A stretch of 64,000 bases of DNA from an uncultured Candidatus Peribacteria bacterium (lineage in GTDB: Bacteria; Patescibacteriota; Gracilibacteria; Peribacterales; Peribacteraceae): the NCBI GenBank assembly GCA_964423795.1, contig CAYRGC010000005.1, positions 316 to 64,315 of the forward strand. The letters run 5' to 3'. Below, piece by piece: positions 3,991 through 62,725 of the stretch. Positions within the stretch are counted from its first letter, which is position 1; each line of letters begins with the position of its first letter. The notes under the pieces are model-generated. The model was not told the origin of the DNA, did no database searches, and saw only the letters and a list, made by a program, of their open reading frames with translations. The position numbers and the translations under genes were made by a program.

Positions 3991-4086
3991 TCAGGCGGAT
4001 ATCTGTTGAGTCACGCATGCCCCTCGCCAGGCTCGGGGTGACAGGGCTTGTCCGAATAGTTACTTCGGTATCTGTTGAGTCACGCA
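3991..4086. repeat. reiterated aguA 3' end plus family-A hairpin
   Basis: An 18-nt direct repeat tatctgttgagtcacgca occurs at 4000-4017 and 4069-4086. The second copy is the real aguA end (..CVTQQIPK*). The first reads VTQQISA* on the minus strand with its own stop at 3991-3993. Between them lies cccctcgccaggctcggggtgac (4020-4042), a family-A motif. Confidence 0.75.
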
Positions 4087-17330: not shown

Positions 17331-17461
17331 GTCTCCCTCGTACGTTCGCGCGAGCTACTCAGGAGGACACTGCGTTGGTTCGTCCCTCGGGCTACACTCG
17401 AGATGACAAGCTCACTATGATAAAGCCTTCATTGTCATCCTTCGACTCCGCTCAGGATGAC
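17331..17461. repeat. three tandem family-A-like hairpins downstream of cysS
   Basis: gtcatccttcgactccgctcaggatgac (17434-17461, 8-bp stem, abutting the cysS stop), gtccctcgggctacactcgagatgac (17382-17407), and gtctccctcgtacgttcgcgcgagctactcaggaggac (17331-17368). Confidence 0.65.
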
Positions 17462-17463
17462 AC

Positions 17464-18951
17464 CTATTTCCTCCGCACCTGTTGTCCCTGCGCGGTGTCT
17501 TTCACGTCATACCCGAGCGCGGCGATCGCGTCGCGCAGGCGGTCGGACGCTGCGAAGTCCTTCGCCGCGCGCGCGGCCGCACGTTCGTCGACGAGCGCTT
17601 GCACGTTCGCGGGAACGGCCTCGTTTTCCGGCTCAAAGCAGCCAAAAACGTGACGTATCTTCTCGGTGAATGCCTGGAGCGCGGCCTTCGCTTCGGCATC
17701 GGGAGACGCCGCGCCGTTCGCCTTGTGCATGCATTCGAACACCGCGGCGAGCGCGCCGGGCGTGTTGAGGTCGCCGTCCATCGCGGCATCGAACTCGGCG
17801 GAGAACGCGGCGACGTCCGCGGCGGTGACCGTGCCCTTGTTCTTCTGCGTCGACTCCCCCGCCCCACCGCGCGCGATCCACTCGGTGATCGAGCGGCGGG
17901 ACTGCCTGGCATCGTCCATCCCCTTCCACGTGAACTTCAAGTTGGTGCGGTAGTGCACCGAGAGGAAGTAGTACCGCAGATCGAGCGGGGAATAGCCACG
18001 ATCTTTGACGTCGGGAATTGTTAACACGTTGCCAAGGCTCTTACTCATCTTCTCCCCCGCGAGGTCGATGCGCCTTTTGTGTAACCAAAGCCGAGAAAAC
18101 GGCTTTTTTTTACCCTGAGCGGCGTCGAAGGGCATCGCCGATTCGCTCTGGGCGATCTCGCACTCGTGGTGCGGGAAGATGTTGTCCTCGCCGCCGGTGT
18201 GCAGATCGAGCGTGTCGCCGAGGATCTTGCGCGCCATCGCGGAGCATTCGATGTGCCAGCCCGGGAAACCGGGGCCCCACGGAGACTCCCATCGGAGCAC
18301 ATGATGCGCGTTCTCGCCCACGGCCTTCTTCCAGAGGGCGAAGTCGGCGGGATGCTTCTTCCGCTCGTTCACGTGCACGCGCGCGCCGGCGTTGAGCTTC
18401 TCGAGCGTGTTGCCTGAGAGGCGGCCGTAGTCGGGGAACGACTCGACCGCGAAGTACACGCCGTCCTCCGTCTCGTACGCGTTCCCCTTCTTCACGAGCG
18501 TCTCGATGATCGCGATCATCTCGGGGATCGTTTCCGTGGCTTTGGGACGCGCGAAAGGCTCCAGGATATTCAGCGCCTTCTCGTCCTCCAAAAACTGCGA
18601 CGTATACATCTCCGCGACGCCGAGAACGTCCTGCATCGTGACCTCCGCGCCATCGCCGCGCTTCTGCTTCGCGATGATCTTGGCCTGCTTCTCCACCTTG
18701 TCCTCGCCCGAGTCGGCGTCGGCGACGAGATGCCCGACGTCGGTGATGTTCTTGACGTGCCGGACACGCCACCCGTGGCCCGCCTCCATCCAGCGACGGA
18801 GGAGATCGGCCATGAGGAACGACGAGTAGTTGCCGATGTGCGGACGCCCGTAGACGGTGGGGCCGCAGGTATACATCTTCACGTCCTTCGGATCCTGCGG
18901 AACGAATTCCTCCTCGGACTTGCTGAAGGTGTTGTAGAGGTGGAAGGGCAC
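17464..18951 (-). CDS. cysS: cysteine--tRNA ligase
   Basis: 495 aa. Class I motifs HIGN ([11 protein letters not shown]) and KMSKS ([10 protein letters not shown]), plus the zinc-site context YTCGPTVY. Confidence 0.95.
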
Positions 18952-29391: not shown

Positions 29392-29468
29392 GGATCCGTA
29401 GCTCAGCTGGTTAGAGCGCCACACTGTCACTGTGGAGGTCGCGGGTTCGAGTCCCGTCGGGTCCGCCA
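29392..29468 (+). tRNA. tRNA-Asp (anticodon GTC), CCA encoded
   Basis: Manual cloverleaf: GGATCCG ta GCTC agctggtta GAGC g CCACA ctGTCac TGTGG aggtc GCGGG ttcgagt CCCGT CGGGTCC g cca. Confidence 0.95.
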
Positions 29469-29840
29469 TTTTCGTGTTGTAGGAATAATGCTTTCGCGAA
29501 GAAGCAAAGAGAAGCCGATGACGAGAAGCCCGTGGTGAGCAAGTCCGCCGAAGCGGACGAGCCGAACCAAGTCCCGTCGGGTCCGCCATCCTTCGTCTCC
29601 GCTCAGGATGACATCCTGGAGACAAGAGCAAAGAGACGAGAATCCTGTGGTGAGCGAGTGAGCGAAGCGAACGAGACGAAGGGAGTCCCGCTTGCCCGGC
29701 GAAGTCAGCCGACGCCGACGAAGCGGGGTCGGGTCCGCCAGCATAAATACGCGACATCAACCCTCTCCACAGTCTTCAACTTCCCCCGAGACTCCTCGTA
29801 GCGCCGCAGCGCGTAGTGGGGTCGGGTCCGCGATTTTTTC
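29469..29840. repeat. array of partial copies of the tRNA-Asp 3' end with family-A motifs
   Basis: agtcccgtcgggtccgcca (29450-29468, real) recurs exactly at 29570-29588. The shorter gtcgggtccgcca occurs at 29728-29740 and gtcgggtccgcg at 29821-29832. The family-A motif CCATCCTTCGTCTCCGCTCAGGATGAC lies at 29586-29612. The loop-expanded relative gtggtgagcgagtgagcgaagcgaacgagacgaaggg lies at 29647-29683. Confidence 0.8.
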
Positions 29841-46496: not shown

Positions 46497-46618
46497 TGGC
46501 AGGCGCGGCAGGGATCCCTTCGTCTCGTTCGCCTATCGGCTCACTCGCTCAGGGTAAACTTCCCACTGTCAGCAAATCATTGTTCATTAACGATTGTCAT
46601 CCTGAGCCTGACGAAGGA
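46497..46618. repeat. duplicate of the tRNA-Trp 3' end plus two family-A motifs
   Basis: tggcaggcgcggcagggatc at 46497-46516 is identical to 46619-46638, the 3' 20 nt of the tRNA on the minus strand. Between them lie cccttcgtctcgttcgcctatcggctcactcgctcagggt (46516-46555) and gtcatcctgagcctgacgaaggatg (46596-46620). Confidence 0.8.
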
Positions 46619-46694
46619 TGGCAGGCGCGGCAGGGATCGAACCCGCGACCCTCGGTTTTGGAGACCGATGCTCTACCAGCTGAGCTACGCGCCT
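46619..46694 (-). tRNA. tRNA-Trp (anticodon CCA), CCA encoded
   Basis: Minus strand: AGGCGCG ta GCTC agctggta GAGC a TCGGT ctCCAaa ACCGA gggtc GCGGG ttcgatc CCTGC CGCGCCT g cca. Confidence 0.95.
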
Positions 46695-46809: not shown

Positions 46810-48750
46810 GTGAAGATCCTCGAACATCGCTGGTATTGGGCCCTGGCGGCTCTTCTCTCGATCCCCCTCGCCGCGTACCTGGCGTTCGGCCGCTCGCTCA
46901 TCCTCGGCTTCGCGCCGATCGACGACATCCTGCTTGTGACCCAGAACCTCGCGGCGCACGGCCTTTCCTGGGAGCACCTCAAGCTCGCCTTCACGACGTA
47001 CGATCCGGAGCTCTATATTCCGCTCACGCTCGCGAGCTTCCAGGTCGATTTCTCGCTCGGGGGACTGATGCCGCACCAGTTCCACCTGACGAACCTGCTC
47101 CTGCACGCGTGCAACGGCGTCCTCGCGGCGCTGCTCCTCCGCAAGCTCACGGGTTCCCGGTGGGGGAGCGTGCTCGGCGGACTGCTCTTCGCTGTCCATC
47201 CGCTGCAGACGGAAGCGGTCGTGTGGATCGCGGGACGCAAGGATCTGCTCTTCGCGCTCTTCGCGCTGCTGTCGCTCCTCTTCTGGACGGATCGCGAGCG
47301 CGGATGGTGGCGGACCGCACTCTCCATCGGATTCCTCGCGCTGGCGCTCCTTGCGAAGGTGACGGCCGTGATCGTGCTTCCGCTGTGGGTGCTGATCGAT
47401 TGGTTTGTCGGAAGGCAGAAAAGGGAGAAGACGGAGAAAAGGGGAAAAAGGTGGTGGCAGCAAAAAATCAGCGACCTTTCGTCCCTTTTTTCCCTTTCAA
47501 ACCTTTTCTCCCTCTCGTCTCTCGCACCCCTCAGCGGCCTCGTACTCTGTACCATCTTCGGCCTCGTCTCTCTCGGCGGCAAGGAGCGCGTGCTCGGGTC
47601 GCAGCCGGTCTTCGAGATGCTCCTCACGGGCTTCCGGAGCGTATGGTTTTACGTCACGCAATTCGTCGCGCCGGTCTCCCTCTCGATCTCGCACGAGTGG
47701 GCGGGCGGCTTCTCGCCGACGCATCCCGCGCTCTGGGCGGGAACGCTGCTAACCGCCGGAGCGACGTGGCAGGCGTGGAGATGCCGCCAGCGCGCGCCGT
47801 GGGTGACGTTCGGCTGGCTCTTCTTCCTCATCGCGCTCGCGCCGACGTTTCTGGGCTCGCGGAAGGGCGGCATGCTGCTCTTCGCGGTCGACCGGTACGC
47901 GTACGTGCCGCTCCTCGGCCTCGTCTTCCTCGCCGCGGAGACGGGAAGGCGCGCGGCGGAGCGATGGAGCGCCGGGAAGATCGCGGCAGGAGCCGGACTC
48001 GCCGTCGTCGGGATAGCGATCCTACTGTCCCGCGCGCAGACGCGCACGTGGGACTCGCCCGAGAAGATCTTCGAGCAGGCGCTGCGCGTGACGCCCTCCT
48101 CGGTGGGATCCCGCGTGAGCCTCGCGAGCGTCATCCTCCAGAAAGGCGATACTGAGAAGGCGTTCGTCGTGCTCAAGGAAGGGCTCAAGTACGGGAAGGA
48201 CAAGGAGCTGAACCTTCTCGCCGGGCAGATCTACGCCAAGGCGGGGGACACCGCCTCGGCGCGCGAGCAGTTCGCGACCGTTCTCAACGAGGATCCGAAG
48301 AATCCCGACGCGCTCTTCGCCCTGGGCTCGCTCGACGAGCAGGAGCAGGATCACGACGCGGCGCTGGAGGAGTACCGCAAGGCCGTCGACGCCGATCCGT
48401 CGTACGTCTCCGCGCGTAACGGCATCGCGCGCATCAGCCTGCAACGGAACGACGACGCGACGGCGGAAGCGGAACTCGCGGCGGCGCTCCACTGGAACCC
48501 GAGCACCGGCGAAAGCCACCGCCTGCTCGGGCTGCATCTCGAGAAGAAGAAGGACTACGCCGGCGCGGAGGATCATTTGCGCAAGGCGATCGATTCGCGC
48601 GGAAAGTCCGTGGACCTGCTCCTCGCCCTCGCGGGCGTGCTCCACGCGCAAGGGAAAGACGCCGAGGCGAAGACAACGCTCGAGGAGGTGCTGCGGGCGG
48701 ATCCGCGGAACGGGGAGGCGAAGGAAATGATGAATTCCCTCCACCCCTAA
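46810..48750 (+). CDS. TMTC-like membrane protein: polytopic GT-C-type N-terminal domain plus C-terminal TPR repeats
   Basis: 646 aa with a GTG start. The N-terminal FAPIDDILLV and HLTNLLLHACNGVL are typical of DUF1736/PMT_2-TPR proteins. At least four TPR-like repeats lie in the last ~230 aa. The last 4 codons and the stop lie inside a family-C repeat. Confidence 0.8.
   Translation: MKILEHRWYWALAALLSIPLAAYLAFGRSLILGFAPIDDILLVTQNLAAHGLSWEHLKLAFTTYDPELYIPLTLASFQVDFSLGGLMPHQFHLTNLLLHACNGVLAALLLRKLTGSRWGSVLGGLLFAVHPLQTEAVVWIAGRKDLLFALFALLSLLFWTDRERGWWRTALSIGFLALALLAKVTAVIVLPLWVLIDWFVGRQKREKTEKRGKRWWQQKISDLSSLFSLSNLFSLSSLAPLSGLVLCTIFGLVSLGGKERVLGSQPVFEMLLTGFRSVWFYVTQFVAPVSLSISHEWAGGFSPTHPALWAGTLLTAGATWQAWRCRQRAPWVTFGWLFFLIALAPTFLGSRKGGMLLFAVDRYAYVPLLGLVFLAAETGRRAAERWSAGKIAAGAGLAVVGIAILLSRAQTRTWDSPEKIFEQALRVTPSSVGSRVSLASVILQKGDTEKAFVVLKEGLKYGKDKELNLLAGQIYAKAGDTASAREQFATVLNEDPKNPDALFALGSLDEQEQDHDAALEEYRKAVDADPSYVSARNGIARISLQRNDDATAEAELAAALHWNPSTGESHRLLGLHLEKKKDYAGAEDHLRKAIDSRGKSVDLLLALAGVLHAQGKDAEAKTTLEEVLRADPRNGEAKEMMNSLHP
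47418..47527. repeat. family-B periodic-arm palindrome (9-nt unit) inside the TMTC-like coding sequence
   Basis: The left arm is gaaaagggagaagacggagaaaaggggaaaaagg. The right arm is cctttcgtc ccttttttc cctttcaaa ccttttctc cctctcgtc tctcgcac. Complementary blocks include ggagaaaagg/ccttttctcc. The element is translated in frame as ..KREKTEKRGKRWWQQKISDLSSLFSLSNLFSLSSLAP.. Confidence 0.65.
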
Positions 48751-52576: not shown

Positions 52577-52649
52577 GCAACCGGGATTCCAGGCAACCAA
52601 GCAACCAGGAGATCATCCTGGTTACGTGGTTTCTCGGTTGCCTGGTTGC
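52577..52649. repeat. family-B periodic-arm hairpin (7-nt unit) between convergent khpB and dnaJ
   Basis: The left arm is gcaaccgggattccaggcaaccaagcaaccagga. The loop is gatca. The right arm is tcctggttacgtggtttctcggttgcctggttgc. Confidence 0.75.
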
Positions 52650-52650
52650 T

Positions 52651-53733
52651 TTACGTTAGCTTCTTCCACTCTTCCACGAGCTTCCTCTCCTCCCGGCTGA
52701 GCTTCGAGGGGATCTCCACCGTGACCGTGACGAAGTGATCGCCGTGGCGCGAGGTTTGCAGCACGGGCATCCCTTTGCCTTTGATCCTGAGCATCTGGCC
52801 CGACTGCGTGCCGGCGGGCACCTTGAGCGTGACGGGGCCCTGGACCGTCTGCACCGTCATCTCGGCGCCGAGGATGGCGTCGGGCACGGAAACGACGAGC
52901 GTCGAATGGATATCGTCCCCCTCGCGGGCGAACCGTGGATCAGGTTCCACGCGCACGTGGACGTAGAGATCGCCCGCGGCGGCGGCGCGCTCGCCGGCGT
53001 TGCCTTCGCCGCGGACACGGAGCGTCTGTCCGTCGGCGATGCCGGCGGGAACGTCGACTGTCACCTTCGCGCGCTCGCGGCGGCGTCCCGTGCCGTCGCA
53101 ACGGGGACACGCCTTGTCCGGCACCTTGCCAGAGCCGCGGCACTTGGGGCACTGCATTCTCTGCTGCACCTGGCCGAAAAAGGACGACGCGACGCGCGTC
53201 ACCTGGCCCGTGCCGCCGCACTCCGAGCACGCGGAGACCTTGGAGCCCGGCGCGGCGCCGTCGCCCTTGCACTCGGAGCAGGCGCGCAGCGCCTCAAACT
53301 CGAGCGCGCGGGAGAGACCGCTCACCGAGTCGGCGAACTCGATCTCGATCGCCACCTCGACGTCCGCGCCCTTCGCGGGGCCGCGCTGCCGGCCGCCGCC
53401 CCCGCCGAAGAATCCCTCGAAGAGATCGCCGAAGTCGAAGGCCTGGCCGTTGCCGCCCGAGAAGTCGAAACCGCCGAAGCCCCCTCCTGCGCCGGGACGG
53501 AAACCGCCCGCGCCGTTGCCCGTCGTCCCGAACTGATCGTACATCTGTTTCTTCTGCGGGTTACTCAAGGTCTCGTACGCCTCATTCACTTCCTTGAATG
53601 TGTTCTCGGCGCCCTTGTCGCCCTTGTGCTTGTCGGGATGCAGTTCCTTGCTCAGGCGACGGTACGCCTTTTTGATATCGTCCGCGGAGGCGGAGCGGGA
53701 AAGGCCGAGAATCTCGTAGAAATCGCGTGGCAT
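52651..53733 (-). CDS. dnaJ: molecular chaperone DnaJ
   Basis: J domain DFYEILGLSRSASADDIKKAYRRLSKELHPDK, a G/F region, and four CxxCxG zinc-finger motifs (CSECKGDG, CSECGGTG, CPKCRGSG, CPRCDGTG). Confidence 0.95.
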   Translation of the reverse strand: MPRDFYEILGLSRSASADDIKKAYRRLSKELHPDKHKGDKGAENTFKEVNEAYETLSNPQKKQMYDQFGTTGNGAGGFRPGAGGGFGGFDFSGGNGQAFDFGDLFEGFFGGGGGRQRGPAKGADVEVAIEIEFADSVSGLSRALEFEALRACSECKGDGAAPGSKVSACSECGGTGQVTRVASSFFGQVQQRMQCPKCRGSGKVPDKACPRCDGTGRRRERAKVTVDVPAGIADGQTLRVRGEGNAGERAAAAGDLYVHVRVEPDPRFAREGDDIHSTLVVSVPDAILGAEMTVQTVQGPVTLKVPAGTQSGQMLRIKGKGMPVLQTSRHGDHFVTVTVEIPSKLSREERKLVEEWKKLT

Positions 53734-55446: not shown

Positions 55447-55450
55447 GGTT

Positions 55451-55565
55451 TCAAAGGGGACAAAGGGTACAAGGGGCACAAAGGTAGTTTCGCTTTTCGC
55501 GTATGTATGGATTCCTTTGTCCCTATTTGTACCCTTTGACACCTTTGCAACCTTTGTACCTTTCC
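55451..55565. repeat. family-B periodic-arm hairpin (8-9-nt unit)
   Basis: The left arm is caaaggggacaaagggtacaaggggcacaaagg. The loop is about 29 nt. The right arm is cctttgtcc ctatttgta ccctttgac acctttgca acctttgta cctttccc. Confidence 0.75.
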
Positions 55566-57897: not shown

Positions 57898-58380
57898 ATG
57901 GGATCGTCTCCATTCCACGGGATCTTCGCGGCACTCGCGCAAGGACAGGAAGCGCAAGACGCGGCGCCTGCGCGCTCGCAGGCGAGCCAGCCCGCGCGCG
58001 ACGATTCCGCGGCGGCGCGCTCGTCGTCGCCCTCTTCGTCGTCGACGCCGCAGGTCGGACGCGTGGCGGTCGACATCTTCGAGCAGGACGACTACTTCAT
58101 CATCAAGGCGCCGATCGCCGGCGTGCGCATGAGCGACATCGACCTCGAGGTGAACGACAACGTTCTCACGATCCGCGGCCAGCGGAAGCAGACCGATGCT
58201 GCCGCGGACGGACAGTACTTCCTCCGCGAGTGCTTCTGGGGCTCCTTCGCGCGCAGCATCACGCTCCCGATGAGCATCGACCCGCGCAAGATCAAAGCCA
58301 CGTTCAACAAGGACTGCGTGCTGAAGATCCTCGTGCCCAAGGAAGAGCGCGTGAAGATCGTGAAAATCAGCGAGGCGTGA
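57898..58380 (+). CDS. Hsp20/alpha-crystallin family small heat-shock protein
   Basis: The alpha-crystallin domain VDIFEQDDYFIIKAPIAGVRMSDIDLEVNDNVLTIRGQR..FARSITLP..KATFNKDCVLKILVPK follows a Ser/Ala-rich N-terminal region. Confidence 0.9.
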   Translation: MGSSPFHGIFAALAQGQEAQDAAPARSQASQPARDDSAAARSSSPSSSSTPQVGRVAVDIFEQDDYFIIKAPIAGVRMSDIDLEVNDNVLTIRGQRKQTDAAADGQYFLRECFWGSFARSITLPMSIDPRKIKATFNKDCVLKILVPKEERVKIVKISEA

Positions 58381-58383
58381 CGA

Positions 58384-58450
58384 GGTAACCAGGTAACCAA
58401 GAAACCAGGTAACCAGGAAAAATCCTGGTTACCTGGTTACGGGTTGCTGG
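58384..58450. repeat. family-B periodic-arm hairpin (8-nt unit ggtaacca)
   Basis: The left arm is ggtaacca ggtaacca agaaacca ggtaacca gga. The loop is aaaa. The right arm is tcctggttacctggttacgggttgctgg. Confidence 0.8.
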
Positions 58451-59016: not shown

Positions 59017-59841
59017 ATGAAGCTTGCACAAGCCATTCTCCCCGTCGCGGGCCTCGGCACGCGCTTCCTTCCGTGGACCAAGGCGGTACCGAAGGAGCTG
59101 CTGCCCATCGGGAATCAGCCGATCATCGCGCTGCTTGTGGACGAGTGCTTGAGCGTCGGCATTACCGACGTCTGTTTCGTCATCAACCGCGGCAAGGAGG
59201 CGATCCCCCAATACTTCTACGAGAACCCCGCGCTGAGCGCGGAGCTGGAGCGGAAGGGCAAGACGCACCTGCTCGAGGATCTCACGCGCTACGACTCGGT
59301 GAACTTCCACGTGACCTACCAGGAGCAGATGCTCGGCGACGGCCACGCGCTCCTGCAGGCGCGTCACTGGGTGAAGACGCCGGAGGTGGCCGTGCTCTTC
59401 GGCGACGACCTGATCGTAGGGAAGCGCAACGGTCTCCAGCAGCTGACGGCGGCGATGGACGCCACCAAGGGCGACCGCGACGCCGTGATGCTCTGCCTGC
59501 AGAAGATCGACCCCAAGCACACGGAGAAGTACGGCATCGTGGCGGTGGATAACTCTGCCGCGAAGGGCAACGTGCGCCGCGTGACGGGCCTGGTGGAAAA
59601 GCCGAAGCCCAAGGATGCGCCAAGCGACCTCGGGATCGTGGGGAAGTACGTCGTCCCCAAGATGATCTTCGACAAGCTCCATTTGATCGAGGAGGGCTCG
59701 CACGGCGGCGAGATCCGCCTGATCGACGCGCTCATCGCGAACAGGGACGCCGTCGACATCTTCGGCTGCGTCTTCGATGGCAAACGGTACGACACGGGCA
59801 CCCCCGAAGGCTACAAAGAAGCCGTCCTCGACCTTGGATAA
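59017..59841 (+). CDS. galU: UTP--glucose-1-phosphate uridylyltransferase
   Basis: ILPVAGLGTRFLPWTKAVPKELLPI.., GDGHALL, VEKPKP. The ATG at 59017 is preferred over the track start at 58444. Confidence 0.93.
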   Translation: MKLAQAILPVAGLGTRFLPWTKAVPKELLPIGNQPIIALLVDECLSVGITDVCFVINRGKEAIPQYFYENPALSAELERKGKTHLLEDLTRYDSVNFHVTYQEQMLGDGHALLQARHWVKTPEVAVLFGDDLIVGKRNGLQQLTAAMDATKGDRDAVMLCLQKIDPKHTEKYGIVAVDNSAAKGNVRRVTGLVEKPKPKDAPSDLGIVGKYVVPKMIFDKLHLIEEGSHGGEIRLIDALIANRDAVDIFGCVFDGKRYDTGTPEGYKEAVLDLG

Positions 59842-60082
59842 TCACTGAGTGTCACCCTGAGCGGAGTCGAGGGACGACACGGGCACGCCCGAGGGATAGA
59901 AGGAGGCGGTACTCGACCTTGGCTAAGTGTCACCCTGAGCGGAGTCGAAGGGCGACACCGGCACCCCTGAGGGGTACAAGGAGGCGGTACTCGACCTTGG
60001 CTAAGTGTCACCCTGAGCGGAGTCGAAGGGCGACACCGGCACCCCTGAGGGGTACAAGGAGGCGGTCCTCGACTTGGGCTGA
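59842..60082. repeat. three tandem units (85, 78, 78 nt), each a family-A hairpin plus a copy of the last 16 galU codons and a stop
   Basis: The units span 59842-59926, 59927-60004 and 60005-60082. Each contains gtgtcaccctgagcggagtcga(a/g)gg.gac followed by gac ac. ggc ac. cc. gag gg. ta. aag gag gcg gt. ctc gac .t. ggc t.a. Confidence 0.9.
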
Positions 60083-60105: not shown

Positions 60106-60462
60106 ATGGCCGCGGAAGACCACATCGGCATCGTCGAGTTCGACTTGTTCCAGCGAGGCACGCGGCCGCGGGAACTCACGTATCTCGAGGCCGAGGCGCT
60201 CGAGGAAGAGATCGAAAACAGAAGGAGGGAGATCTATTCGCTCTTGGGCCGACTGATCTTCTGCCTGAGCGGCGCCGTGACGACGCGCGTCTCGAGCGAG
60301 GTGAATCCGCGCTTCCCTTACGTCCTCAGCGAGCGGATCAGGATCGCGATGGTCGGGGAAGGAAAAAAGGTGGAAGACGCGCATGAGGCCGTCGGCTCCT
60401 TCGTACAGGGGATCGTGCTTGAGATGCCGGAATGGGGGAAACAAGGCTCGTCGAGATTCTGA
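60106..60462 (+). CDS. hypothetical protein
   Basis: 118-aa ORF with protein-like composition (..ELTYLEAEALEEEIENRRREIYSLLGRL..). I recognise no family. Confidence 0.45.
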   Translation: MAAEDHIGIVEFDLFQRGTRPRELTYLEAEALEEEIENRRREIYSLLGRLIFCLSGAVTTRVSSEVNPRFPYVLSERIRIAMVGEGKKVEDAHEAVGSFVQGIVLEMPEWGKQGSSRF

Positions 60463-60465
60463 CGA

Positions 60466-60622
60466 TCACTTCGTCGTCAGTTCCCGTCTGAAGAGCTCCT
60501 CCTCGTCTGCGCTCGGGATGACAACGGTTATTTCGTCGTCAGCTCCCTCCTGAGTAATTCAATCTCATGGCGAAGATCGGCAGCCTTTTCGCCCTTCGAC
60601 AGGCTCAGGGTGACAGAAGGAG
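60466..60622. repeat. two reiterated copies of the uvrB 3' end interleaved with family-A hairpins
   Basis: On the minus strand, copy 2 (60528-60590) reads [20 protein letters not shown]. Copy 3 (60466-60510) reads ADEEELFRRELTTK*. The family-A motifs are cccttcgacaggctcagggtgac (60592-60614) and cctcgtctgcgctcgggatgac (60501-60522). Confidence 0.85.
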
Positions 60623-62653
60623 CTATTTCGTCGTGAGCTCCCTCCTCAAGAGCTCAATTTCGTCTCGCAGGTCAGCAGCCTTCTCAAATTCCAGGTTCTG
60701 CGCGGCGATCTCCATCTGCTTCTCGAGCTCTTCCATGAGGCGCTTACGCTCGTCGAGCGGGATCTTCGTGTGATCGCGCTTCGGGCGGCGGAGTTCCATC
60801 TTACGGCTCTCCTCGGCGATGTCGCGCACGGCCTTGATGATCGTCTTCGGCGTGATGCCGTGCTTTTTGTTGTACGCCTCCTGGATGCCGCGGCGGCGCT
60901 CCGTCTCCCCGATGGCGGCCTTCATGGCGTCGGTGATGCGGGGCTTCTTCGTGTCCGGGTCCGGCGAGGCGTAGAGCGTGACGTGGCCGTTGACGTTACG
61001 GGCGGCGCGGCCGATCGTCTGGATGAGGGCGTCGCGCGAGCGGAGAAAACCCTGCTTGTCGGCGTCGAGGATCGCGATGAAACTCACCTCGGGGAGATCG
61101 AGACCTTCGCGCAGGAGGTTGATGCCGACGAGGATGTCGATCTCGCCGGTACGGAGCTGCCGGAGGATCTCGATGCGCTCGAGCGTCTCCACGTCGCTGT
61201 GGAGGTAACGGACCTTCTTGCCCTGCTCCGTGAGGTACTTCGTGAGGTCCTCGGCCATCTTCTTCGTGAGCGTCGTGATGAGCACGCGCTCGCCGCGCTT
61301 GATCGTGGCCTCCACCTCGCCCGAGATGTCGTCGATCTGGTTCTTCGAGGGCTTCACGGTCACGACCGGATCGATGAGACCCGTCGGGCGGATGATCTGC
61401 TCCGCGAAAAACGCCTTCTGCGTGTTCTTGAACTCGTACGGGCCAGGCGTGGCCGAGACGTAGACGCGCTGCGGGCAGCGGTCCTCGAACTCGTCGAAAC
61501 GGAGCGGGCGGTTGTCGTGCGCGGAGGGCAGGCGGAAGCCGTAGTCGACGAGGGTGTTCTTGCGGCTGCGGTTGCCCTCGTGCATGCCGCCGATCTGCGG
61601 GATGGAGATGTGCGACTCGTCCACGACGAGCAGGAAGTCGTTCGGGAAGTAGTCGAGGAGCGTCGACGGGGGGCAGCCGGGAGCCTGGTTATTGAGGTAC
61701 CGCACGTAGTTCTCGATGCCGGTGCAATAACCCGTCTCGCGGAGCATCTCGATGTCGTACTCCGTGCGCATGCGGATGCGCTCGGCCTTGGCGTGTTCGC
61801 CGTGCGCTAGGAAGAACTTCTCCTGCTCCACCATCTCGGCCTTGATGCCGTCCACAGCCTGGTCGATCTTCTCCTTGGTGGTGACGTTGTGGGCGGCCGG
61901 GAAGATCATCACCTCCTGGAGCTCGTTCAAAAGTTCTCCGGTGAAGCTGTCGACCTCCTGGATCACGTCGATCTCGTCGAAGGGGACCTCGATGCGGATC
62001 ACCGTGTCGCCGCTCGGCGGGAAGATCTCCACGGTGTCGCCGAGCACGTGGACCATGCCCTGCTTGAAGTCCATGCCGGAGCGGCGGTACTGGATGTCCG
62101 TGAGGCGGCGGAGCAGCTGATCGCGCTTGATGGGCATCCCGCGCTTGAGCGTGATCGCCAGCGCCTCGTAATCCTCGACGTTGCCGAGACCGTAGATGCA
62201 GGAGACGGACGCGACGATGAGCACGTCCCGGCGCGTGAGCAGGTTGAATGTGGCGGCGTGGCGGAACTTCTCGATCTCCTCGTTGATGCTCGCGTCCTTC
62301 TCGATGTAGGTATCGGTCGTGGGGAGGTACGCCTCCGGCTGGTAGTAATCGTAGTAGGAGACGAAGTACGAAATGGCGTTCTCCGGGAAGAACTGCTGGA
62401 ACTCGTTGCAGAGCTGCGCGGCGAGCGTCTTATTGTGCGCGAGCACGAGCGTGGGGCGCTGCACCTGCTGCACGATGTTGGCGATCGTGAACGTCTTGCC
62501 CGTGCCCGTGGCGCCGAGGAGCGTCTGATGCTTCTCGCCGGCGTTCACGCCCTTCACGAGTTGCTCGATGGCCGCGGGCTGGTCGCCCATGGGCTGGAAC
62601 GGCGACACCAGCTTGAAGGGCTGGTTCTGCACGAGTTTGAGGGAGCTCGACAT
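60623..62653 (-). CDS. uvrB: excinuclease ABC subunit B
   Basis: Walker [18 protein letters not shown], helicase motifs, and the C-terminal UVR domain ..[17 protein letters not shown]. The ATG at 62653 (MSSSLKLV) is preferred and is preceded by TATGCT 9 nt upstream. Confidence 0.95.
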
Positions 62654-62725
62654 AAGATGCTGAGCATACCACAAGAAAGATCCGGATGGCAGGGGCGAAC
62701 ACCGAAAAGCGGGAAATTCCGCACA

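Follow-up and report, generated by a model that had tools for sequence, protein, structure and literature searches.

Copies of gene 3′ ends, joined by a small hairpin repeat, at five loci of a Candidatus Peribacteria genome

In a 64,000-nucleotide (nt) stretch of a Candidatus Peribacteria metagenome-assembled genome (63% G+C; "the window" below means this whole stretch), the gene galU for UTP-glucose-1-phosphate uridylyltransferase (59017..59841, plus strand, 274 codons, ending DTGTPEGYKEAVLDLG*, where the asterisk is the stop) is followed by three units of 78 nt, each consisting of a hairpin of about 27 nt and then a further copy of the last 16 codons of the gene and a stop. The assignment of the gene is straightforward: homologs from Candidatus Peribacteria at 100-60% identity contain PF00483 and are annotated UTP--glucose-1-phosphate uridylyltransferase, and the C-terminus DTGTPEGYKEAV..LG is kept across 120 homologs. 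The current working end of galU, which we call E0, comprises the last 16 codons and the stop (59791-59841) and is followed by a 7-nt spacer, tcactga (59842-59848), and a first hairpin, H1 (59849-59875, GTGTCACCCTGAGCGGAGTCGAGGGAC, fold -11.9 kcal/mol); spacer and hairpin together take up 59842..59875. The copy of the galU end in unit 1 (59876-59926, DTGTPEG*KEAVLDLG*) is succeeded by hairpin H2 (59927-59953, GTGTCACCCTGAGCGGAGTCGAAGGGC), the copy in unit 2 (59954-60004), hairpin H3, identical to H2 (60005-60031), and the copy in unit 3 (60032-60082), all on the plus strand. The hairpins of the units follow the pattern GTGTCACCCTGAGCGGAGTCGA(A/G)GG(G/A)C, and the junction of hairpin and galU end reads GARGGNNGACACNGGNACNCCNGARGG. 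Tandem Repeats Finder reports the array at 59848-60077 with period 78, 3.0 copies, 94% matches and a score of 397, and a repeat-family search groups the gene end with the three units as a single family.

The copies differ from the gene at almost only synonymous sites. Between the gene and unit 2 there are 9 nucleotide differences over 9 codons, all synonymous; unit 3 differs at 11 nucleotides in 10 codons, including the change of the stop from taa to tga, with the amino acids unchanged; and unit 1 differs at 9 nucleotides, giving 8 synonymous codons and one nonsense change (tac to tag). Since just 25% of the single substitutions that this stretch allows would be synonymous, the probability of nine random changes all being synonymous is about 4e-6 (0 occurrences in 100,000 simulations). 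The three copies are not all independent, as unit 2 consists of the first 35 nt of unit 3 and the last 16 nt of unit 1, and its hairpin is that of unit 3 and differs from H1. Unit 2 is thus most simply read as the product of one unequal crossover between units 3 and 1, in which case galU would require two replacement events, not three.

A similar picture emerges at four other loci in the window. When the ends of all 48 predicted genes were compared with the sequence downstream of them, only galU, uvrB and aguA gave copies above shuffled controls, and the same hairpin, H, lies at the junction in all three. The uvrB gene (60623-62674, minus strand) has a tail array of two layers (60466..60685, minus strand) consisting of the working end (20 codons and tag, 60685-60623), a hairpin (60615-60591), a 63-nt copy u1 (60590-60528), a variant hairpin H′ (60523-60502), and a native-like copy u2 of 33 nt with the stop tga (60498-60466). 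Gene and u1 differ at 15 nucleotides over the 20 codons, with 11 of the 12 changed codons silent and one non-synonymous (D to H). The aguA tail (3991..4086, minus strand) has one layer: the working end (...CVTQQIPK*, 4086-4060), a 16-nt spacer, a variant of H (4043-4018), and a displaced copy of 27 nt (CVTQQISA*, 4017-3991), the two ends being identical over the first 18 of 27 nt and different in their tails.

At the two tRNA genes what lies between the copies is longer, namely an element (E) of about 100 nt with a hairpin at both ends, unlike the single hairpin at the protein genes. The tRNA-Asp locus (29392..29740, plus strand) has two layers, in the order tRNA (29392-29468), cargo E1 (29469-29569), a first 19-nt copy of the tRNA 3′ end (29570-29588), cargo E2 (29589-29683), and a second copy that is split (29684-29690 and 29729-29740) by a hairpin insertion at 29691-29728. 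The tRNA-Trp locus (46497..46694, minus strand) has one layer, with the tRNA at 46694-46619, a cargo of about 100 nt at 46618-46516 (a reversed H at its left end, and at its right an H with a 22-nt loop insert), and a 19-nt copy of the 3′ end at 46515-46497. The three tRNA cargos are homologous to one another, each opening with a reversed hairpin and closing with a hairpin that holds a 22-nt loop insert, and they carry terminal inverted repeats of 8-10 base pairs (bp; CCTTCGTC...GACGAAGG) between perfect 19-nt direct repeats.

Across the five loci the direct repeats reach the stop codon or the CCA, and are 19 nt long at the tRNAs, 27 at aguA, 33 and 63 at uvrB and 51 at galU; those of the tRNAs extend to CCA from the G/A of TTCGA in the T-loop. 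The repeating units span 78-140 nt and contain no open reading frame (ORF). In the array a gene end followed by a hairpin is repeated, and the last end lacks the hairpin, which is the signature of an insertion flanked by duplicated target rather than of a duplicated block. The duplicated segments are always directly preceded by a hairpin ending in ...GAAGG(G)(C), and five of the six independent target segments start with GA (GACAC, GAGAAG, GAGCTC, G|ATCCC, G|AGTCCC; the starts lie at 59791, 60685, 60655, 46637 and 29449-29450). This may mark a preferred cut or crossover site.

A first-pass annotation of the window had described the three units after galU with their near-exclusively synonymous changes, and had claimed the same layout at uvrB, aguA and both tRNA genes; the repeat detection and codon counts agree with the first point, and end copies with a hairpin were found at each of the other loci. 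It had also argued that each copy was once the working end of galU and that the copies did not arise by local slippage. The copies do show selection at the protein level and did serve as working ends, and the codon-position pattern does speak against slippage, but unit 2, most simply a hybrid of units 3 and 1 left by local unequal crossover, was not an independent allele.

Which of the copies is native can be judged from relatives. The gene order recJ-HTH-HSP20-x-galU-ORF118-uvrB (HTH, helix-turn-helix) is kept in them, with ORF118 at 60106 in the window, and three close ones (L001, L002 and L004) have a single galU end with no units downstream of it. In L001, whose GalU is 83% identical, the gene ends 'ctc gac ttg ggc tga' and continues ..cctacgct.cccggccatgg, as in unit 3, which is contiguous with the ancestral downstream flank. 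The galU locus is therefore polymorphic for the insertion, with units here and none in the three close relatives or in 31 further Peribacteria galU loci from metagenomes, each with a single galU end. Of the loci with none, one or two units that the first-pass annotation had suggested looking for, those with none were found in 31 + 3 cases, and arrays in none of these. The other protein genes agree in direction. All AguA homologs end QQ[ILVM]Px, save for a Q at the bracketed position in two (P0154 and P0157), and the displaced aguA tail (ISA*) equals the ...IPA* tail of the nearest relative except for one P-to-S change, the working end being IPK*; copy u2 of uvrB is similar to the uvrB ends of relatives.

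Stops and codon usage separate the ends in the same way. The distal copies end in TGA in 3 of 3 cases (TGA makes up 59% of the stops in the window) and the introduced ends in TAA or TAG in 5 of 5. Every stop with H directly 3′ of it, those of the five independent introduced ends and of cysS, is TAA or TAG (no TGA in six, P about 0.005). E0 has 5 of 16 codons ending in A or T, in a gene with a G+C content at third codon positions (GC3) of 0.90, and such codons concentrate in the working ends of galU and uvrB (gene GC3 0.90 and 0.92) from the repeat boundary onward, whereas unit 3 has 14 of 15 codons ending in G or C, matching the codon bias of the genome. A search for a recombination breakpoint along galU by sliding identity against the three relatives was uninformative. 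The match of unit 3 to the unit-free relative, the matches of the aguA and uvrB tails to relatives, the TGA stops and the GC3 pattern together indicate that the distal copy is the native end, and that new ends were added next to the gene while old ones were displaced. By these comparisons unit 3 can be identified as the original end of galU in this genome, and the working end and unit 1 as allelic ends that evolved as functional galU ends elsewhere, unit 1 being a former working end later displaced. By our own count, the independent pseudo-copies (about 70 codons) hold only 4-5 non-synonymous or nonsense changes, with more than half of the synonymous sites differing between copies, implying that the alleles diverged for far longer than the time since displacement.

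The hairpin itself is a repeat with a very wide distribution. H is a unit of about 26 nt (TGTCAYCCTGAGCGGAGTCGAAGGR), in which an inner stem of 4 bp encloses a loop of 12 nt; the motif has 6 matches in the window at no more than 3 mismatches against 0.00 expected, and there are about 10 copies in the 64 kb in all, short, palindromic and mainly intergenic downstream of genes. Taken as an exact 18-mer, the core CCTGAGCGGAGTCGAAGG is present in the genomes of at least 120 GTDB species, and the groups among the matches listed include Bacteroidota, Acidobacteriota, Chloroflexota, Cyanobacteria, Gammaproteobacteria, Nitrospirae, spirochaetes and candidate-phyla bacteria; H2 matches copies from unrelated phyla at 100% identity over 26-29 nt. 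Over 142 instances the 5′ flank TGTCA[CT] and the loop are conserved and the 3′ flank is not. We considered a long perfect hairpin and rejected it, as pairing exceeds the shuffle control (0.93 against 0.69) at the innermost flanking position only; this and the variable 3′ flank set the unit at about 26 nt. In the other phyla, H among the matches listed has no orientation bias relative to genes. A phage origin is unlikely, with H in only 4 IMG/VR contigs. Among the Rfam 15 covariance models only the two tRNAs reach the gathering score, and nothing credible appears at E <= 10 around the units, so a known RNA can be set aside, as can a CRISPR-like array, whose 'spacers' would here be copies of each other. 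A literature search by the motif sequence returned nothing relevant, and the Peribacteria genome paper makes no mention of such repeats.

Copies of H also occur outside the arrays. A complete hairpin (GTGTCATCCTGAGCGGAGTCGAAGGATGACA, 17433..17463, minus strand, z-score -2.7) lies directly after the stop (tag) of cysS, the gene for cysteinyl-tRNA synthetase (17464-18951, minus strand), without a gene-end duplication. A further H core lies in frame inside cysS (18110..18135, plus strand, with cysS on the minus strand), where it inserts, immediately ahead of the KMSKS region, 8 residues (AMPFDAAQ) that solved CysRS structures lack; in this it is like the Rickettsia palindromic elements, which are inserted in frame in genes. 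The hairpin that splits the distal tRNA-Asp pseudo-copy is a 38-nt variant of H (CTTGCCCGGCGAAGTCAGCCGACGCCGACGAAGCGGGG, 29691-29728, plus strand) lying between AGTCCCG and TCGGGTCCGCCA, and the lack of a target duplication around it marks it as a nested insertion. In more distant Peribacteria (L129 1262-1345, also L131) galU is followed by TAA, 2 nt, a perfect H variant (TGTCATGGTGAGCTCTGTCGAACCATGACA), 15 nt and a reversed H, with no copy of the galU end at the L129 locus. A relative (L185 3578-3640) has an H variant (TGTCATTCCGAGCGCAGACGAGACG) 30 nt past the aguA stop, again without a gene-end copy. This variant is similar to the older of the two uvrB hairpins in the window; downstream of aguA both genomes thus have a hairpin, but the duplication is found only in the window. 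No gene-end duplication was found beside solitary H in 120 foreign loci among the matches listed, the apparent case (L106) being a longer repeat.

Similar arrays at tRNA genes, with other cargos, were seen elsewhere. In the closest sequenced relative (L186 9535-9830, GCA_964601225.1) tRNA-Trp, oriented opposite to the epimerase gene, is followed by two identical 133-nt units, each joining an unrelated cargo of 106 nt to 27-29 nt copied from the tRNA 3′ end; the site has thus been hit recurrently, and local amplification of units does occur. In a candidate-phylum metagenome contig (L135 3578-3900) a 26-nt copy of the 3′ end of tRNA-Arg lies 221 nt downstream, with several unrelated GC-rich hairpins in between.

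These observations suggest that a miniature mobile element has repeatedly brought in foreign replacement gene ends. In the explanation that we favour, and that we would place midway between doubt and acceptance, the tract after galU is a stack of displaced 3′ ends, with modules from a diverged allele recombined in and the gene end serving as attachment or homology segment. At least twice, a module consisting of an allelic gene end, TAA or TAG and H would have recombined in from a diverged relative with lower GC3, its left boundary at the GA that opens the conserved Asp-Thr-Gly codons. Each incoming end would become the working end and push the resident one downstream as a pseudo-end, and one unequal crossover (unit 3 with unit 1) would then yield unit 2. 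The gene end would thereby act much as the attB/attP cores do at the 3′ ends of tRNA and housekeeping genes. As the units encode nothing, the enzyme would have to act in trans, either as a site-specific recombinase or as a nuclease whose break is repaired from an already invaded allele, which would supply the right-hand homology.

The recombination mechanism is something we infer, and of three routes (recombination across the gene end, transposition plus allele replacement, and a homing cassette) it needs the fewest events. It fits the divergence of galU and uvrB over the whole repeat, the extent from T-loop to CCA, the repeats of 19-63 nt and the GA starts, as well as the poor suitability of the ends for RecA: the galU copies are only about 80% identical over 51 nt, which disfavours RecA recombination with the short end as sole homology and favours a site-specific or break-repair route. 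Repeats of 19-63 nt that include the gene end, the T-loop-to-CCA extent and the stacking also match integrase-type integration and accretion (PMC5704250).

Several findings weigh against this explanation. One H is found at three protein genes and one E family at two tRNAs, where a classical element has one attP, and a cargo of 26 nt is too small for arm-type sites. In uvrB there are two insertion positions, at 33 and 63 nt from the end of the gene. The presence of H without duplication after cysS, inside cysS and inside the tRNA pseudo-copy means that mobility of H and end replacement could be separate processes, and the identity of the first 18 nt of the aguA copies can be explained only by a crossover within the repeat or by a local origin. 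No donor allele with unit 1 or E0 followed by H was found, and the count of three units at galU comes from the source assembly alone, the independent contig breaking inside unit 3. Finally, no gene for a recombinase, transposase, HUH enzyme, reverse transcriptase or nuclease was found by Pfam in the units or in 40 of the 48 window ORFs. The site-specific process that the first-pass annotation had proposed is accordingly no more than a candidate, given this lack in the 40 ORFs and the insertion of H without duplication.

That annotation had also suggested looking for the hairpin motif outside the window and beside a nuclease. The only protein family recurring beside H is a GIY-YIG nuclease of about 100 amino acids (PF01541, E = 1e-19 to 1e-20), found at 5 of 120 foreign loci among the matches listed, all in Ignavibacteriota and Bacteroidota (L016 300-1065; L093 330-880; L040 1255-1900; L063; L075), with the gene bracketed by direct copies of H in three of the five. 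A tblastn search with GIY-YIG gave no match in the window or in the Peribacteria loci examined, no host gene-end duplications were found flanking the cassettes in Bacteroidota and Ignavibacteriota, and no REP-associated tyrosine transposase (RAYT; REP, repetitive extragenic palindrome) flanked by H was seen. At L016 there are tandem remnants of the 3′ end of the nuclease gene itself with H, and the upstream host ORF shares the nuclease tail; at L040 five copies of H form a tandem array of 27-nt period.

A different account, which we think improbable though worth keeping in mind, is that H (26 nt) and the doublet of about 100 nt are gene-less selfish elements that home into conserved 3′ ends with a recoded copy of the end, again with the enzyme in trans. 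The recoded copy would serve as homology or attachment segment, would repair the host gene, and would perhaps confer immunity to re-cutting, and the enzyme could be a small GIY-YIG nuclease of the kind found beside H in other phyla. If true, this would amount to homing that requires neither intron nor intein nor a resident endonuclease gene, and it would take place in bacteria of the candidate phyla radiation.

It is also conceivable, if unlikely, that H and E are miniature transposons which make long target-site duplications of variable length, landing just past the stop or CCA and duplicating the last 19-63 nt, and that the working gene was later swapped for a diverged allele by homologous recombination while the downstream copy stayed frozen. 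The tRNA cargos, with terminal inverted repeats inside perfect direct repeats, speak for this, as do the occurrence of one cargo family at different targets, each with a target-specific repeat, the variable repeat length and the identity of the aguA copies over their first 18 nt. The intergenic spacers are tiny (23 nt from galU to the next gene, about 3 nt from uvrB to its neighbour), so that any tolerated insertion must fall right at a gene end, and the distant Peribacteria lineage L129 has galU, TAA and H without a duplication. However, each of the 4-5 protein-gene layers would need a second, independent allele replacement with its right crossover within the 26-nt H or a few bases. The solitary copies inside cysS and in the tRNA pseudo-copy have no target duplication, the sequence past the stop is not duplicated at aguA or at the working ends of galU and uvrB, and the 40 of 48 ORFs scanned yielded no DDE transposase. 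When tested as duplications of the IS1634 type, the tRNA repeats are identical and the aguA copies identical at 18 of 27 nt, with the galU and uvrB copies differing at 9-15 sites.

Distinctly unlikely, to our mind, is that the arrays are scars of homing-endonuclease cassettes, in which H, a small GIY-YIG ORF and H inserted with a recoded, cleavage-resistant gene end, and the ORF was then deleted between the direct copies of H to leave a solo H. The recurrence of GIY-YIG genes beside H described above is in favour, as are the highly conserved targets (GalU DTGTPEGY, the tRNA T-loop and the UvrB C-terminal helix) and the order of foreign C-terminus, element and native C-terminus, which is that of mitochondrial mobile ORFs (PMC3630166). 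Yet nothing inside Peribacteria supports it, with no GIY-YIG gene in the window or the loci examined and an ORF remnant in 0 of 8 units, and the cassettes of Bacteroidota and Ignavibacteriota lack flanking duplications of host gene ends. Moreover, the position of the gene relative to H varies, so the nuclease may simply use H as a landing site.

The source being a metagenome-assembled genome, one could suspect an artefact in which allelic galU ends of co-existing strains were threaded through a shared hairpin. An exact repeat of 78 nt occurs in units 2 and 3 taken with their flanks, unit 2 combines parts of units 1 and 3, and it is inside unit 3 that the galU contig of the independent Logan assembly of run SRR12487045 breaks. 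The same assembly, however, reproduces base for base the structures at tRNA-Trp (contig L193), aguA (L194) and uvrB (L195), and the assembly of the relative has a tRNA-Trp array of its own. The junctions from the gene through H1 to unit 1 and from H through unit 3 to the downstream flank are unique sequence. A minimum of one hairpin with two different ends must be real, and we regard the artefact as highly improbable.

That local slippage duplications were kept gene-like because their RNA structure was under selection, or because they act in regulation, for example as an array of terminators or stabilisers, is hardly credible: tandem repeats can slip, the hairpins do fold modestly, and both unit 2 and the identical 133-nt units of the relative attest local amplification, but the differences lie almost only at third codon positions in units that are untranslated (each ends in a stop codon and follows one), the z-scores of the galU hairpins are weak (-1.0 and -1.4) with no Rfam match, and the last copy without a hairpin marks an insertion, not a duplicated block. 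Slippage as the sole origin is rejected by the codon-position pattern, local duplication being accepted for unit 2 alone, as an unequal crossover. A diversity-generating retroelement is rejected as well, with only 1 of 9 differences between unit 2 and the gene at an A of the unit and no reverse transcriptase in the scanned ORFs.

Phage 21 and e14 are reportedly examples of integration at the 3′ end of a housekeeping gene, icd. The first-pass annotation knew of no described element with such behaviour, but two kinds are known. Elements with a tyrosine integrase enter tRNA and housekeeping genes at the 3′ end, where direct repeats of 8-60 bp preserve the gene; they accrete in tandem and decay to gene-less cis-mobilizable elements (CIMEs; PMC5704250). 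Our arrays resemble these elements (integrative and conjugative or mobilizable elements, prophages and CIMEs) in that direct repeats include the gene end and leave the gene intact, the element supplies a new end and leaves the old one at the far junction, the repeat at tRNAs extends from T-loop to CCA, and successive events stack at one site. They differ in having a cargo of 26-104 nt without a gene, in carrying the same cargo at five or more different targets, where one element family normally has one attachment site, in having two insertion positions within one gene (uvrB), in lacking an integrase among the scanned window ORFs, and in that the cargo is a repeat of many phyla, not a decayed island.

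Another close parallel comes from fungal mitochondria, where mobile ORFs of the GIY-YIG or LAGLIDADG type carry a foreign C-terminus for the host gene, as in atp6 of Allomyces and atp6, atp9, cox2 and nad3 of Glomus (PMC3630166). There, too, the order is foreign C-terminus, element and native C-terminus, the native copy matches relatives, the copies differ largely synonymously, and a horizontal origin is inferred for the inserted copy. Our loci, in contrast, have no endonuclease ORF and only 26-45 nt between the C-terminal copies, lie in a bacterium of the candidate phyla radiation, include tRNA genes among the targets and have several stacked layers.

Two further groups of elements share some of these features. 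Long direct repeats of variable length are made by elements of the IS1634 type, and casposons insert at the 3′ ends of tRNA or EF-2 genes with target-site duplications; in both, as here, long target duplications flank the insert, and insertion is at the extreme 3′ end of a gene that survives, but their duplications are identical when made, whereas most copies here differ at synonymous sites, and no transposase or Cas1 gene was found in the 40 of 48 ORFs. Elhai et al. are said to have described, in 2008, small dispersed repeats of cyanobacteria as very small mobile elements. H, at 25-30 nt, multi-copy and often just past stop codons, is like these and like REP/REPIN-type repeats, as it is in occurring as singlets and inverted doublets, in frame inside cysS, and nested in other copies. 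REPs are tiny mobile hairpins (PMC3733652). For these small elements, the Rickettsia palindromic ones among them, flanking by diverged host gene ends is not reported. What is conserved in H is a 12-nt loop and the 5′ arm, in place of a GTAG or CGTC tag; no RAYT was seen for it, and it is identical over 24-29 nt across distant phyla.

A carried replacement 3′ end is thus already known from integrase elements and fungal mitochondrial endonuclease ORFs, and what is unusual here is the cargo of 26-100 nt, its presence at different targets and the absence of an enzyme gene nearby. The combination of a gene-less, 26-100-nt hairpin cargo of many phyla between foreign and native ends, at five loci in 64 kb, was not found in the literature searched. 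If our reading is right, 3′-end insertion with a supplied replacement end is feasible for elements of only 26-100 nt, and housekeeping genes of a small-genome candidate phylum preserve former and foreign 3′ ends in a stack that can be read like a fossil record of gene flow between lineages. A further outcome is a hairpin repeat of 26 nt that many bacterial phyla share in identical form, without an Rfam family and with no literature match by sequence. On the practical side, arrays of this kind would interrupt assemblies, give rise to spurious ORFs ('CHPERSRR...' peptides), and could distort 3′-end annotation and phylogenies based on gene termini.

The window contains, in addition, long imperfect hairpins made of 8-9-nt periodic repeats and their complements (for example AGGTAACC four times, facing CCTGGTTA) at 58380-58445, 52585-52680, 55450-55565 and 47410-47520. 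They sit between gene ends, after HSP20, between the gene for an R3H-domain protein and dnaJ, and upstream of recJ, and may be terminators or binding arrays; to H they are unrelated.

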